Source: Torpedo marmorata (Eukaryota). From it: DNA of 64,000 bases. The notes under the pieces are model-generated. The model was not told where the DNA came from. It did no database searches and was given only the letters and a program-made list of their open reading frames with translations. Positions 3,520 to 45,105 of the stretch are shown here, piece after piece; within the stretch, counting starts at the first letter, position 1, and each line of letters opens with the position of its first letter. Location: the NCBI GenBank assembly GCA_977017645.1, contig OZ360221.1, positions 40,424,001-40,488,000 of the forward strand, given 5' to 3'. The position numbers and the translations under genes were made by a program.

Positions 3520-4045
3520 TCATCATCTTCCTCCCTCTCACCTTCTTTCTTTGAGTAGTGCTGCATACCTCTACCACAAGTCATCGTCAAGTTCCTGGCT
3601 GCTCAGATTGCAACCTCTCATCTACCAGGGCAGTTTGACTGCCATCAGTTTGCACCATCACTCCTGACATTGATGTGCTGCAATCCCATAAAGCATGTCT
3701 ACAATCCTGGACAATCCTTTGATATGGCTCCTTCTTTTCTCCTCCTCATCAAAGAGCAAAACTTGTGCACAATGAGGATCACCAAATGAAGCAGGACCTC
3801 CTCAAGCACTATTGGGATTGACTCTCCTCTTTTATAGCAACATGGAAGAAGACTATTCAGTCTGGTTCATTCTAGTTCCCAGTACCACAGTCCCATCAGT
3901 CCCCTTCCCCATCTCTACATTTTTCTGCACCTCTGCAGCTTATTTTCTCTCATATATGCTCATTAACTCCCCTTTGCCATTAACCGATACTGATCGATAA
4001 TTTATGGTAACCAATTAACCCACCAGCATGTCTTTGGGAACTAAC

Positions 4046-31173: not shown

Positions 31174-31774
31174 CACTGGATAACGAAGATTTTGCTTCCT
31201 GAACACTTTGGGGTGTATTTTATGGATTTTGGGCTGCTGATCACGAAAACCATCTTAAAAGTTTCCTACCATGTACTGTTTTTTTAGGTATAACTTATTT
31301 TTGTGATTGCCTGTCATATTTTAAGTCTACTTGAAGCATACAAAACCATGAAGTGCAACATGTCATTGAAAATTCATTTTCTGCATTCGCACTTGGACTT
31401 CCCTGCTGATCCTGTTGCAGTCAGTGACGAACATGGTGAAAGGTTTCACCAGGACATTGCGGCCATGGAAAAGTGATATCAGGACAACTGGAATCCATCA
31501 ATGCTGGCCGACTATTGTTGGACACTGACACGAGAGGCATCAGATGCTGAGTACGAATGAAAATCAGTGGCAAAACATTTTTAGGTCAGTTGAACTAACA
31601 CAATGTGTCAGCATCATTATGCGATTAAACATGCTACATTCAATAAAAGTTAATTGAATGTTTCTCCATCTTCCTACGCGACACAACAAATCTGAAATTA
31701 TCTTTGTATTCAGTTTGAGGTTGTCTATCATAATCTTTCAGGAAGCAAACCTTTTGAAAAAATGTGTTGTCAGT
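31174..31774 (+). mobile_element. Chapaev3-like non-autonomous DNA transposon, copy 1 (right end damaged)
   Basis: TTA|CACTGGATAAC left end; transposase 3' remnant with stops; collinear with 41141 and 44504. Confidence 0.75.
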
Positions 31775-32399
31775 CGTGATGGTGGGTCTCAACCTGAAAT
31801 GGCCACCATCCCTTCACTTCCTGTGTGACCTGCTGAATTCTTCCAGCAGTTTATTTTTTTGCACCATGTGCCACTACTCATACCCACTGTGCCCATGAAA
31901 CTGCTGTACTTGTCCTTCTTGGTGGTAGAGTTTACAGGTTTGGGAGTTGTTGTTGGAGTAGCCGAGGTGAGTAACAGATTTGAAGATGGTACACACTACA
32001 GCCTCAGTGTGATTACGGTGGAGGGTGTGAATGTTAAGTAGTTGGAGGTGTTGTGGGTAGTGTAGAAGGTTGACGTACAGTAGGTTACAATAGGATATAG
32101 ACAGGATGCAGAGTTGGGCAGAGAAGTGGCAGATGGAGTACAATCTGGATAAATATGAAATGATGCATTTTGGAGGGTTGAACTTGAAGGTGAAATACAT
32201 GGTTAATGGCAGGATCTAATAAGAGATTACTTAAGGTGGTATGTGAGTGGAAATAAAAGGTTGCGAACCACTGCTTAAACAGATATTCTCTTTTCCAGTT
32301 TCATTCAGTAAGCCATCATCAGAAAATAAATCACACAGTGGGATGAACACATCATTGGAATTGAACAGAGTAATTTGAACATTGGTGTTCTTCTGGAAA

Positions 32400-38829: not shown

Positions 38830-41308
38830 CAGCCAGTAAGGGGCGTGTGCAGACGACCATAAACATATGTACAGGTATTTACAGTGGTTTACCACAACTC
38901 AATACTTTGATTTATGAAGTCCAATATGCCAAAAGCTCTCTTTACATCCCCATCTACATATGATGCCACTTTCAGGGAATTATGTATCTGTATTCCCAGA
39001 TCCCTCTGTTCTACCGCACTCCTCAGTGTCCTACCATTTACCATGAATGTCCTACCTTGATTGTCCTTCCAATATGTATTTCTAATCTTCAAACTTTAAC
39101 TTCCCGCTGTCAAGACTTTTGAGTGATGTTATTAAGAAGAAATGACTGCGCAGCATTTGAAGTTAACATTCACATTTGGAATTTCCAATGTAATTAAAGT
39201 CAGGAGTGGGCTACCTCTATTTAGGCCTCCGTCCTGAAGGTGGTGTTGTGACTGCTCCACTGTACCCATCCCAGAAGTGTGGGATAACACACAGCTGCTC
39301 TTCAAACTCCTCTATAGCCTTGGATAACGTCACAGATGTGCACTAATATATTTCAGCACAAAAACAGAAAGCACCAGAAGTACTGAGTTGACCAGTAAGC
39401 ATCTCGCAGGAGAGAAATGATGTTCCAGTTCAGTGACATTTTGATCCCTATGGTGATGGGAGGAAAGTTTAGGCGAGACATCAGGGGCACGTTTTTTACT
39501 CAGAGAGTTGAGGGTGCCTGGGATTCATTGCCAGGGGTGGTGGTGGAGGCTGTTAGATAGGCACATTGGTGAAAGAAAAATAGAGGGTTATGTGGTAGGG
39601 AGGGTTTAGGTTTTGTTTGGAAGGAATATATAGATCAGCAGAACATCGAGGGCCGAAGGGCTTGTACTCTGCTACAGTGTTGTAGGTTCTAAATCATCCA
39701 CCCTTATGTGAGCAAGATGATTTGGGTTTTCTGGTTTGTATCTAAAATTCAGCAGTGAAAGCACATCGGGGTTTAGTTTTGTTCTCCTGTAAAGACTCTA
39801 ATCCAAAGGATTCCATGGCATTATTTTGAAGAGTATTTTTTCCTCAATATTCTGGTCAATATTTATCATACAATTAATATCATTATGATTGATTATCTGA
39901 TCACATGTCTCAATGTTGTTTGTAAGAAATTTCTCAGTATAAATAGGCAGTTGCTTTTCTTGTATTTGTATTTTCTAACCACATAGACAGAGGCCATTCT
40001 CTCCTTCGTCACGCTAGCACATAGAGCAACCCCATCAATCTTGTTTTCCCCCACTTCCTTGTAGCATCTTTATCAAAGGCTCATCAATTCCTCCCAATCC
40101 ACCCACTTACTCGAGGAGTACAGCAGCCACCAATGAATCACCTGGTTTGCCTGCCTTGCTGCACGTCTCCAAGATCAGGGTTTGATCCCGACTTCTGCTT
40201 CTCCATGCAGAATTTGCATGCTCACTGGTTTCTGCTGGGTGCTCTGGTTTCCACCAATACCCTGAGAGGATACTGTAAGTTAACTCTGGTGCTGGTGGGT
40301 GGGAGGCAAATTGAATGGAATGGATGGACACATGAGATAGAATAAGTTCCTGGGTAATAATTGGGATACTGTGACTGATGGGTGTTCTGAGGCTAGAAAT
40401 AAACTTGATACTGAATGAGCTCCCTCTGCACCTCAACGAAATACGAAAGAGTCTACACTGCTGGATATTTTCAACAGAGGAATGGATCACAGAGCCAAGG
40501 ACAACTCTCTGCTCCCCTAGTCCTTGCACACCAGTTTGTTTTCCAGCCACAGGAGCTGTATGTGGAGAACGACACAAGTACCAGGGTCGTAGAATCATTG
40601 AATCATGTTCCATGGAAACAGATCCTTCAGCCTACCATGTCTGTGCTGACCATCAAGGACCCATCCACTGTAATCCCATTTACCATTTGTGGTGGAAAAC
40701 ACCAGTGACTTGTTCAAGACCATTGAAACAGATGGGCGATTACAACAATTCTCTCGTTTTGTGATAAGCATTACTAATAACTTAAACATTTCAGATAAAT
40801 GAACAATTGAAATGTCACATGGTGCAACGAGGAAGTTTGTTTTGTGAGCAGTTCAGCTAGACACCCCTTATCTAACACAGCAAGTAACACTCAGTGTGGA
40901 AGTGCAGAGGTACAGAGAGTAATCCGTTATTACAGAGTTGCTTGTGTGAGGTTCGTTCAGGAGACAAAAAAAAACAGCAGGAAATAAACTGCCCTTGAAT
41001 CTGATGGTGCGTGATCTCACACTTGTGAATCTTCTTCCTGATGGGAGGAGGGAGGAGAAAGTGTGGTCAGGGTGAGATGAGCCTTTTTATACATTGGCTG
41101 CTTTTCTAAGGCAGTAGGAGGATGCATCGTACATCAATAACACTGGACAACGAAGATTTTGCTTCCTGAACACTTTTGGGTGTATTTCATGGATTTTGGG
41201 CTGCTGATCACGAAAATCACCTTAAATATCACGTACAATTTTTTTAGATATAATCTATTTTTGTGATTTCCTGTCATATTTTAAATCTACTTCAAGCATA
41301 CAAAACAC

Positions 41309-41536
41309 ATGTCATTGAAAATTCATTTTCTGCATTCGCACTTGGACTTCTTCCCTGCTGATCTTGGTGCAGTCAGTGACGAACATGGTGAAAGGTTTCA
41401 CCAGGTCATTGAAACCTTGGAAAAGCGGTATCAGGGCAACTGGAATCCATCAATGCTGGCCGACTATTGTTGGACACTGACACGAGAGGCATCAGATGCT
41501 GAGTACAAACGAAAATCAGCGGCAAAACATTTTTAG
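41309..41536 (+). pseudogene. C-terminal fragment of a Chapaev3-type (RAG1-related) DDE transposase
   Basis: MSLKIHFLHSHLDFFPADLGAVSDEHGERFHQ...MLADYCW; HxxxxH plus GAxxxExxE pattern. Confidence 0.75.
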
Positions 41537-41570
41537 GTCAGTTGAACTAACGTAATGTGTCAGCATCATT

Positions 41571-41917
41571 TTTTAAAAATATTTTATTTAAAATTTTTAA
41601 ATCACACAATACACAGTTTAAAACGCAAATTTCTCAAATTACATGTGATACATTTTCACCCCCCCTCCCCCCCACCCTCCCCTCCCTAACCCTCCCGAAA
41701 AGAAAGAAAGAAGAAGAAAAGGATAGAGTAAGGAGAATGTCAATCTAAAAAGAACAACTATAAACTGATCTTATTGTGGAGGATAGGCTCGCCAGCCAGA
41801 CCCGATGTCCAGAGATCTTCAAATCCTTAAATGCACAATTTTTATATATGGGCTCCATACTTCCAAAAAGAAATGATACTTATCACGTAAATTATATGTA
41901 ATTTTTTGTAATTATAT
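41571..41917 (-). mobile_element. L1-clade LINE 3' end
   Basis: Minus strand encodes KITYNLRDKYHFFLEVWSPY (L1 ORF2 end) with AATAAA and an A-rich tail; 19-bp TSD GTAATGTGTCAGCATCATT (41552-70, 41918-36). Confidence 0.8.
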
Positions 41918-42464
41918 GTAATGTGTCAGCATCATTATGCAGTTAAACATGCTAAAATTCAATAAAAGTTAATTTAATGATTCTCCAACTTCCTACGTGA
42001 TACAGCAAATCTGAAATTATCTTTGTATTCAGCTTGAAGTTGTCTATCATAATTAGCAATTTTTTTTTCAGGAAACAAACCTTTTGAAAAAATTTGTTGT
42101 CCAGTGTAATTAGGTGGGGAAACCCAGATGCCGTGATTATTATCCGGATTATTGTTTATTTTAGAAGTTTGCCATTCTGCCACCATTTATTGAACTGAAT
42201 TGTGAGGGCAGGCTTTGGGATGGGTTAAATGGAATTGAGTGTTGGAGTTGCTTTACGGTTGGCATTGTGACTGCTCCAGCTGAGCTGATGGTTGCAGTAG
42301 AGGTAGGACTGGCATGGGCAAATGAACTTTACTTTAACATTCAGCTTGCTTTGTGACCCATGTGAACATATTTTGCAATGCGACTTTAGTTTGCTGAAGG
42401 GAAATGGCTGTTTTGATTGTGGAAAGTCTTTAAATAGATGGGTTCACTGGGACAAGCTGGAGTA

Positions 42465-42817
42465 TATGATAGGTATAGACAGAGTAAATGTAGGTAGGCT
42501 TTTTCCACTGAGGGTAGGTGAGATACAAACCAGAAGACATGGGTTAAGGGTGAAAGGGGAGAAGTTTAGGGGGAACATTAGGGGGAACTTCTTCACACAG
42601 AGAGTGGTGGGAGTACGGAATGAGCTGCCAGCTGAAGTGGTGAATGCGGGCTCAATTTTCACATTTAAGAAAAATTTGAACATGTACATGGATGGAAGGG
42701 TATGGAGGGATATGTTCTGGGTGCAGGTCAATGGGACTAGACAGAATAATAGTTCAGCACAGACTAGAAGGGTTGAAGGCCTGTTTTCTGTGCTGTAATG
42801 TTCTATGGTTCTATGAT
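42465..42817 (+). mobile_element. CR1 3' fragment
   Basis: GEKFRGNIRGNFFTQRVVG; TTCTATGG-type tail. Confidence 0.85.
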
Positions 42818-42982
42818 TCCATCAGTCACAGGACTAACATACAGTATTTCACACAAATGACCCTTGTATCATTCAATGCGGCAATTACTGTTGGTACTCC
42901 TGCTCCGTGTATACTTTGCTGACTTCTCTGTTCATAGGTAACATGGGAGGCTTCAGGATTTGTGACAGAAAACGGTGGTGGT

Positions 42983-43858
42983 TCAAGTTCAAGTTCATAT
43001 ACTGTACATATGCAACCCGATGAAAAAGCTTTTCTCTAGTGCGCATGCACATGCACCACATATACTGTATACATAAAGATATAATTTAAAATAAGTATGT
43101 ATAAATATTTTGAATTGATGTACTTGGTTACAGGATACTGTCCATCAATCTCACAGCCTGTAGGGAGAAGCTATTCTCCAGCCTGGCAGTCCTGATTTTG
43201 ATTCTCCCGTACCTCCTTCCTGATGGTAGTGGGTCAAAGATACTGTGTGATGGGTGGAAAGTGTCCTCAATAATTCTCTGAGCCCTATTTAATCAACGGT
43301 CCCGATTAACGACATCAGTAGAGGACAGTGAGACCCCAGTGACCTTCTCGGCCATTTTGATGATCCTCTATTGACTTCCAGTCCAATGCTTTGCAGCTGC
43401 CATGCCACACGATGATGCAGCCAGACAGGGCACTCTCAATTGTGATCCTGTCTGGCTGCATTTCCATGACGGTCGAGGACAGTGTCACCGGGCGGTAGTT
43501 GTTTAGTCCAGTTACCAATGCTCCCTTGGGCACTGGGATGATAGTGGCTGCCTTGAATCCTGTGGGAACAATGTACTGTTGCAGTGAGACTTTGAAGATG
43601 ATTATTAGGACCTCCGTCAGCAGGACTTCACAGTCCTTCAGCACCCGACCAGGTGTGTTGCCTGGTCCTACTACTTTATGTGAGTTCACCCTGGATAGGA
43701 TCCTCCTCACCTCAGCTATGCAGGATGCCTGTTCTTTTGGGGGAGATGGGGCTTTCTTCGGTGTCACGTCGTTTTTCTCATCGAACCGTGGATAGAAGGT
43801 ATTCAACCAGACAAGAAGGGAGGCATCATTGTGGCTGACCCGCAGGGTTGACTTATAG
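42983..43858 (-). mobile_element. Rex1/Babar LINE, internally deleted
   Basis: ORF 43315-43806 FKAATIIPVPK...LNNYRPVTL joined to IESALSGCIIVWHG; (ACTTGA)n tail. Confidence 0.8.
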
Positions 43859-44503
43859 TGGTGCTGTGGTGGGAGGCGTTACCCCTTCTAAACAAGTCAC
43901 TAAACTCACTGTCAATAAAAAAAAATCAGCAGAATCACAATAACAGCATGAATTTATGCAGTATCTTCAATGCACCAAATATCTCAAGGCATTTATCCAG
44001 AGTGTTGTTGATAATCATCAGTAATCTTTGGAAGGAAGCCATTGATATCATGAGATGGTTAAATGTTCAGTCAGAGTGGTGGGTCTAACTTGCCCATTAA
44101 AAGAAAAGAGAGTTTAAAAGGTTTTTGGGGAAAGTTTCAGGACGCAAGTCCTTGTTATCAGATGTCAGAAGTGCGGTGATTAAAATAGGAATATGTTGGA
44201 AACCAAAAGTAAAGGAAATTTATGAATAAGAAGGGCTTAGAAGGGTAAAGACCAAATACAGTCAAATAGGACTAGCCCATAAAGCCAACTTGGTCAGCAT
44301 AGATGAGTTGGGACAAAGGGCCTGTTTTATGCAGCATGACTCCACGAATCTTTAACTCCACGAGAGCAGAGGTCATGAATGTCTGTAGGACATAAGAGAA
44401 TGATGCAAGGAAAGGGAAGGGTGAGGCCATGAGGGGGATTTGAGGATTTTACAACTGAGATGTTTTTCGACCAGTGACCAGTGCAAAAAGGGTCGACAGA
44501 TAA

Positions 44504-45105
44504 CACTGGACAACAAAGATTTTGCTTCCTGAACACTTTTGGGTGTATTTTATGGATTTTGGGCAGCTGATCATGAAAAACTCCTTAAAAGTTTCCTATC
44601 ACGTACTGTTATTTTAGATATAATCTATTTTTGTGATTTCCTGTCATATGCATAATTTGCTTCATGCATTCAAAACCATGTAGTGCAACATGTCATTTTC
44701 TGCATTCGCACTTGGACTTCCTCCCTGCTGATCTTGGTGCAGTCAGTGATGAACATGGCGAAAGGTTTCACCAGGTCATTGCAACCTTGGAAAAGCGGTA
44801 TCAGGGCAACTGGAATCCATCAATGCTGGTCTACTTTTGTTGGACACTGACACGAGAGGCATCAGATGCTGCATACAAACGAAAATCAGCGGCAAAACAT
44901 TTTTAGGTCAGTTGAACTAACGCAATATGTTGGCATCATTATGCAATTAAATATACTAAATTCAATAAAAGTTAATTTAATGTTTCTCCAACCTCCTACG
45001 GGATACAGCAAATCTGAAATTATCTTTGTGTTCAGCTTGAAGTTGTCTATCATCCCCAATTTTTTTTCAGGAAGCAAACCTTTTGAAAAAGTGTGTTGTC
45101 CAGTG
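44504..45105 (+). mobile_element. Chapaev3-like non-autonomous DNA transposon, copy 3
   Basis: Both ends intact, TAA/TTA flanks, HFLHSHLDF...SDEHGERFHQ remnant. Confidence 0.82.

Follow-up and report, generated by a model that had tools for sequence, protein, structure and literature searches.

Short and long ends, one helical turn apart, in a Chapaev3 transposon family of Torpedo marmorata and in most related families compared

Transposon ends of unequal build

A 64,000-nucleotide stretch of contig OZ360221.1 from Torpedo marmorata (the window, in which position 1 is the first letter) carries three copies of one repeat of about 0.6 kb, at 41141-42106, 44504-45105 and 31174-~31775. These copies are non-autonomous Chapaev3 DNA transposons whose two ends differ by one helical turn, and the same pairing of a short with a long end is found in 13 of the 15 Chapaev3 families in which both ends can be read. 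Each end opens with a terminal 11-mer (box 1) followed, after a spacer, by a second 13-mer (box 2). The earlier note on this DNA had placed the 11-mer at the tips of both intact copies and of the damaged copy at 31174, and the 13-mer at positions 18-30 from the left but 28-40 from the right end, with spacers of 6 and 16; a pattern search of the window confirms both. The note's description of the ends as bipartite does not hold, since they are tripartite, with a third box at position 63 (short end) or 73 (long end). We consider it likely, on balance, that assembly of the RAG1-fold transposase is favoured by a short end paired with a long one, as a predicted preference and not as a strict rule.

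Asymmetry across Chapaev3 families

The comparison set consists of 80 metagenome loci (the best 80 of 495) and three loci from genome contigs. Among 85 loci, two of them from the host genome, 34 5' ends and 50 3' ends were called by a rule that rewarded the presence of box 3 and not its position, and six more ends were added by hand. The family count leaves out loci with one end only and L116, in which no tip was found; the resulting 15 families include that of the host, and the 14 measured share 43-71% amino-acid identity. The short/long layout is the same in families on metagenome contigs from soil, sediment and insect gut. The one-turn offset, which the earlier note had proposed to check in other Chapaev3 families, is exactly 10 in all eight single-locus families with open frames of 558-578 amino acids (L091, L093, L094, L096, L100, L140, L156 and L160), and an unanchored offset scan returns 10 in seven of these, the eighth having a miscalled end. 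Polarity relative to the open reading frame (ORF) is variable. The short end lies 5' of the ORF in the host family, whereas the printed Garfield, Merrow_TO and Conan elements have it 3'. In L129 the short end is the 3' one, and L176 has its long end 5' of the ORF with an offset of 9, the pair still being short plus long. The termini printed in Fig. S6 of PMC4079192, judged by eye from that figure, give an offset of 10 for Garfield (four shared bases visible) and Merrow_TO and of 9 for Merrow_LF, with the long end 5'.

The sequence of box 2 varies from family to family, yet it matches between both ends of each. When offsets of 0-20 are scanned over 12 families, only an offset of 10 stands out (0.72 versus 0.23-0.34); positions 21-23 and 25 are identical between the ends in all 12 families, as is the presence of CAC at both tips. 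The box 2 window, 20-28, was picked after this 12-family profile had been seen. A further comparison was run on eight families, without two multi-copy families because their representatives had been chosen for an offset of 10; here box 2 identity between ends is 0.875 within families versus 0.474 in mixed pairs (1 of 40,320 permutations). Within each family, the variable positions of the 11-mer and box 2 have changed together at the two ends, and box 2 is A-rich in only one or two of the eight.

Box 3, a RCWGAWYNCRAA-like motif, starts at position 63 in 26 of the 34 called 5' ends. It starts at 73 in 20 of the 50 called 3' ends, 11 of which are without box 3, and in all eight single-locus long ends. 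At both ends it lies 42 bases past the box 2 core. The long spacers open with an A/T tract in each of the eight single-locus families.

The family in the host genome

Two-box ends are abundant in the 6.2-Gb host genome. The 11-mer followed by 4-22 bases and the 13-mer has 7,957 exact occurrences, against none for a reversed-pattern control, so the layout is far beyond chance. The spacer is 6 bases in 3,169 of these ends and 15-17 in 4,308 (7,477 together), 7-14 in 85 and, by subtraction, 4-5 or 18-22 in 395. Among the first 100 ends listed, 40 have a spacer of 6 and one a spacer of 5, while 38 of the 59 long ones have exactly 16. Spacer and flank statistics at the level of copies come from 87 fetched host-genome loci. 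Here the left spacer is 6 in 72 of 75 left ends, the left search pattern itself favouring 6, and the right spacer is 16 in 34 of 57 right ends and 15-17 in 48, the variation sitting in its T-run. The right spacer is therefore not fixed among the copies of the family. In the 57 copies with both ends, which are old, the left flank is TWA in 45, both flanks are TWA in 33 and the flanks are identical in 30; the base outside is A before the copy in 49 and T after it in 43. Where both flanks are TWA, the two are TAA and TTA in five of the 33 copies, the arrangement also seen at 44504; this may exceed what decay would produce.

Facing pairs of ends are short/long in 63 of 64 cases (106 loci), a uniformity that reflects inheritance because all copies descend from one parent. 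Four right ends, the single exception among these pairs and three more exact right ends, have the ten bases deleted on different backbones. Two of the four share two variants, and no amplified short/short subfamily was seen in the host genome. The copies diverge from the majority sequence by about 3-7%, as judged from top-hit sets biased towards young copies, and the amplification, now extinct or almost so, is far younger than V(D)J recombination. The earlier note had also drawn on the early-branching position of the host. That argument fails since the copies are young and the layout recurs in metagenome families, and we do not count the host lineage as evidence that the family is tied to the origin of recombination signal sequences (RSSs), the vertebrate host being incidental. 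The host genome has one RAG1 locus.

Contigs of four other organisms (X2, X3, X12 and X15) carry the family, with ends that are unreadable there; three of them have the same derivative with a deletion of about 1.7 kb, and the fourth is mainly full-length, suggesting a separate amplification. Loci L171-L173 were considered as a second family and rejected, being internal pieces of the family of the 41141 copy. These pieces (in the host genome at C5, C184, C24 and about eight more places) are transposase-gene fragments without transposon ends inside a larger, near-identical repeat unit present on many contigs.

The autonomous parent and its transposase

The 83-codon transposase C-terminus left in the short copies has 1,648 longer relatives, many of them 550-565 amino acids in length. 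Searching the host genome with the transposase core of one relative yielded long copies and, as the earlier note had anticipated of a protein search, an autonomous partner: L061, of 2,282 bp, has an open 557-aa frame and the same ends as the short copies. The 0.6-kb element is the first ~150 bp of this parent joined to the last ~440 bp. The note's assignment to Chapaev3 is supported by 5'-CAC...GTG-3' termini with a short terminal inverted repeat (TIR), a 3-bp TWA target-site duplication (TSD) between A and T, and a DDE transposase whose 557 residues agree with the ~555-560 expected and in which the C(2)C, LH and H(4)H motifs can be located; the same motifs are visible by eye in the Garfield_BM protein printed in PMC4079192. 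An N-terminal Chapa zinc domain is also present, without a RING, and positions 1-140 contain invariant Cys and His residues. Because there is no nonamer and no RAG2 and the TSD is 3 bp, the element is a Chapaev3 and not a Transib, a RAGL element or an RSS.

The best-scoring long copy, L061:384-2665 (G000:C1578), has a ratio of non-synonymous to synonymous change (pN/pS) of 0.29 against the majority sequence (24 synonymous and 26 non-synonymous changes), compared with 0.36-1.21 in 29 other copies. It has no TSD, and its right spacer is 13 bases. The low ratio may point to domestication or may be a selection effect of being the best protein hit.

The kinship of the transposase with RAG1 and Transib, as claimed earlier, is supported by its predicted fold. 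The AlphaFold model of the L061 protein has a mean predicted local distance difference test (pLDDT) score of 80.6, and its best structural match is RAG1 (Z 17.1, root-mean-square deviation 4.8, 355 aligned residues, model 174-548 to RAG1 461-1008), followed by ProtoRAG (Z 16.0), HzTransib (Z 11.4) and the P element (Z 11.1). Foldseek agrees with a RAG1-like fold (E 6.5e-7). Sequence comparison is far less telling: Pfam gave no match for the fragment or the full ORF, RAG1_imp_bd reaching E 0.17 in only two of 45 members; a sequence search of the PDB gave none; and HHalign against the RAG1 of the host alone gave a non-significant probability of 0.5%, although it aligned the second D, C-x2-C and LH motifs. 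The ESM Atlas returned unnamed clusters, with RAG1_RNase_H only at 0.81, and no relatives were found in viral contigs. A basic zinc domain (18 K/R versus 12 D/E; domain model pLDDT 92.8) spans residues 1-140; its top six structural matches are all ZAD domains (Z 2.8-5.3, each weak singly), and an acidic, low-confidence linker, residues 141-170, joins it to the core. A likeness between the ZAD, Chapa and NZD domains has been reported, and the same source describes the RAG1 counterpart of the Chapa domain as having a basic patch and, unlike ZAD, no dimerisation (bioRxiv 2026.01.24.700457). Such properties fit DNA binding and not a pivoting dimer of the kind formed by the nonamer-binding domain (NBD) of RAG1. 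No RAG2 partner is encoded in the 2.28-kb element, which has one long ORF.

Comparison with known systems

Published Chapaev3 elements (CMC/CMCT clade; Merrow, Garfield, Conan and anole families) have CAC...GTG termini, TWA TSDs between A and T, transposases of ~560 aa with C(2)C, LH and H(4)H, and deletion derivatives resembling miniature inverted-repeat transposable elements, according to the portions of PMC4079192 and PMC3014272 consulted. The host family has the termini, TSD, transposase size, motifs and deletion derivatives in common with them. Those portions mention only TIRs of 11-19 bp, with no mention of inner boxes or end asymmetry, and the strings 'asymmetr' and 'spacer' have no occurrences in PMC4079192. 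In the literature searched, which includes the accessible parts of PMC3630058 and bioRxiv 2026.08.26.747230 and does not extend to the Repbase Reports that define the group, asymmetric or tripartite ends are not described for Chapaev3; a prior mention in those reports is possible because their first author had noted asymmetry in Transib.

The ends resemble 12/23 RSSs in the CAC tip, in a second element that lies about one turn deeper on one of the partners, and in the catalytic fold shared by the enzymes. RSS nonamers occupy positions 20-28 and 31-39 (by arithmetic, 7+12 and 7+23; PMC8355894 and PMC1131882), so that '6/16', with box 2 at 20-28 and 30-38, is geometrically close to 12/23. There are also clear differences: the offset is 10 instead of 11, box 2 differs by family and is not an A-rich nonamer, there is a third box, NBD match and RAG2 are lacking, the TSD is 3 and not 5 bp, and symmetric natural families exist. 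One-turn asymmetry itself is already known from RSSs, from five Transib families with RSS12/RSS23-like 5' and 3' TIRs (PMC1131882 and PMC8355894) and from one RAGL-A element, PflRAGL-A, whose TIRs have a 10-bp length asymmetry (PMC10462144). The asymmetric Transib families and PflRAGL-A, however, use nonamer-like boxes, which Chapaev3 does not; Transib and RAGL elements have 5-bp TSDs, in contrast to the 3-bp TWA of the host family; and most Transib families are symmetric, whereas the Chapaev3 sample is mostly asymmetric. Chapaev3 is placed near Transib, though only distantly, in PMC4411706 and PMC12730594.

The Drosophila P element likewise has inner transposase sites at unequal distances from its tips and needs one 5' and one 3' end, but it belongs to another superfamily and has a THAP DNA-binding domain and an 8-bp TSD.

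That most sampled families of a more distant RAG1-fold lineage are asymmetric broadens the question of when 12/23 geometry arose and whether it needs an NBD and RAG2. Chapaev3 elements are small, with a single gene, open frames, natural variety in box 2 and a long/long family beside an asymmetric sister, which makes both the pairing preference and the reader of box 2 directly testable. The layout could suggest a function for the Chapa/NZD domain, and the three-box map (1-11, 20-28 and 63-74, and the same plus 10) is a practical aid for annotating Chapaev3 ends.

How the two ends may be used

If one short and one long end do pair best, the terminal 11-mer would be bound by the catalytic core and box 2 would be read by a second DNA-binding part. 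The most likely candidate is the Chapa zinc domain, the basic N-terminal part of the protein that an acidic, flexible linker tethers to the core, because its position in the chain corresponds to that of the NBD in RAG1 and because box 2 changes from family to family. The ten extra bases, opening with an A/T tract, would amount to one more helical turn, leaving the boxes on the same face and allowing a bend; the paired complex would be lopsided in the manner of RAG bound to a 12/23 pair. Box 3, four turns further in, may be a second binding site. There is a precedent for a tested preference that is not an absolute rule in ProtoRAG (BbRAGL-B), whose 27/31 TIRs work better as asymmetric than as symmetric pairs (PMC8289069), though it differs in having a 4-bp offset and two proteins.

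Several observations weigh against such a preference. Two of the 15 families have symmetric ends. The L098 family is long/long, with TIRs of 231 bp within which the ORF ends; it has two complete copies, L098 and L155, which occupy different sites and are 91% identical, and L098 has a matching TSD. In a tree built from the loci fetched here, the L098 family is surrounded by asymmetric families and has L093, with which it shares 73% DNA identity, as its sister (support 99/97 and 100/95). A copied 3' end has replaced its 5' end, and the element still moved. L114, known from one copy with a matching TSD, has symmetric TIRs of 669 bp, and the printed lamprey Merrow consensus, which was built with gaps removed over a T-run, has short/short termini (offset 0 and 1). 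Symmetric ends therefore remain usable in at least some lineages. In addition, L145/L146 have an offset of 8, in one large decayed family box 3 of the long ends is scattered across 67-75 without a preferred position, and box 3 is missing at 63, by the pattern used, in three of the eight single-locus short ends. Positions 33-60 are also alike within families (0.45 versus 0.38; 540 of 40,320 permutations), so part of the box 2 signal is shared ancestry of the two ends. Within the host genome box 2 is conserved no better than its neighbours (0.97 for the 13-mer versus 0.97 for positions 31-62), so that the test proposed in the earlier note fails, but this comparison is uninformative because neutrally decaying copies cannot show constraint, and other families were therefore compared. 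On the protein side, the structural alignment starts at RAG1 residues 458-461, which we take to lie after the NBD, and no counterpart of the NBD is aligned; the reportedly non-dimerising RAG1 counterpart of the Chapa domain may count in the same direction.

The main rival holds that only phasing matters: each end alone needs its boxes on the right helical face, 6 and 16 being good in any combination; an ancestral 10-bp indel was frozen since other indels break phasing, and symmetric elements arose by end-copying. We regard this as possible, if somewhat unlikely. It accounts for an offset of exactly 10, for the mobile long/long L098 family derived from an asymmetric ancestor by copying of its 3' end, for L114 and for the short/short Merrow consensus as printed. 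Under it, however, copying of ends that made the boxes alike should in many cases have evened out the spacers as well, yet box 2 and the variable 11-mer positions changed together at both ends while spacers stayed unequal in 13 of 15 families.

A bolder reading we put forward as doubtful: the one-turn asymmetry may be older than RAG and Transib and ancestral in the Chapaev3-Transib-RAG group, with Chapaev3 enforcing it by a single protein without NBD or RAG2, the Chapa domain (counterpart of the functionally unexplained N-terminal zinc domain of RAG1) reading a family-specific box.

The earlier note had gone further in suggesting an enforced, 12/23-like pairing rule. For the group as a whole this is not supported, given the several insertions of the long/long L098 family and the long symmetric TIRs of L114; the two symmetric families make a strict rule doubtful, and to judge from their sequences they would argue against obligatory heterotypic pairing for cleavage. 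A strict rule could still hold in the asymmetric families if the transposases of the symmetric ones had changed specificity, and the nearly uniform short/long pairs in the host genome, the lack of an amplified short/short subfamily there and the proximity of box 2 to the positions of RSS nonamers would agree with it. We consider this improbable, as the uniformity of host copies is inherited from one parent, the long/long family is close to asymmetric L093, and there is neither an NBD match nor a RAG2 partner. Finally, that the offset has no function, being a neutral relic of an imperfect TIR or a consequence of promoter or polyadenylation needs at one end, is very improbable: box 2 is no better conserved than its neighbours within the genome and the long spacer slips in its T-run, but the positions (63/73, offset 10) are fixed across 43-71% identical families whose intervening sequences diverged, polarity can flip relative to the ORF, and the between-family comparisons of box 2 and offset already make a neutral relic appear unlikely.

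The copies in the window

The interval 41141..45105 comprises two separate elements with unrelated host repeats in between. Copy A (41141..42106, plus strand) is an internal deletion derivative with a later insertion, and its TSD is TAA at 41138-41140 and 42107-42109. Its left end has an exact 11-mer (41141..41151), box 2 at 41158..41170 (positions 18-30, spacer 6) and box 3 at 41203..41214, starting at position 63. A remnant of the transposase C-terminus, 83 aa from stop to stop, follows at 41285..41536 (plus strand) and retains the H-x3/4-H motif and the catalytic-E region. On the minus strand, the right end has box 3 at 42022..42033 (position 74 from the right tip, the family mode being 73), box 2 at 42067..42079 (positions 28-40, with a spacer of 16 that opens with an A/T tract) and an exact 11-mer at 42096..42106. 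Copy B (44504..45105, plus strand, 602 bp) has exact 11-mers starting at 44504 (plus) and 45105 (minus), left box 2 at 44521..44533 (spacer 6) and left box 3 at 44566..44577 (position 63); on the minus strand, right box 3 is at 45025..45036 (position 70, bases having been lost between boxes 2 and 3) and right box 2 at 45066..45078 (spacer 16). The TWA flanks that the note had described are an exact TAA/TAA in copy A, but TAA/TTA in copy B, where the TSD is inexact. Copy C (31174..31775, plus strand) belongs to the same family. Its left 11-mer has one mismatch, both boxes 2 are intact (31191-31203, plus; 31737-31749, minus), and its right tip is damaged, so that the right boundary is approximate.

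The insertion in copy A (41571..41919, ~350 bp) is foreign to the transposon. It begins with a T-run, is flanked by a direct repeat of ~18 bp and is probably the 3' end of a reverse-oriented retroelement. Between copies A and B, a decayed reverse-transcriptase-like frame, judged by eye, occupies 43315-43878 on the minus strand.

L116 is a distant relative without recognisable tips that has a 57-bp inner inverted repeat (1744-1800 and 3815-3871) with a box-3-like motif. Three short contigs from bacterial assemblies (L175-L177) contain Chapaev3 sequence, most likely as eukaryotic contamination. Finally, the transposase C-terminus is found inside two annotated host proteins, P0017 and P0016 (an electric-ray GIGYF2-like isoform and a caecilian RPB3 entry), which may reflect exonisation or an annotation artefact.

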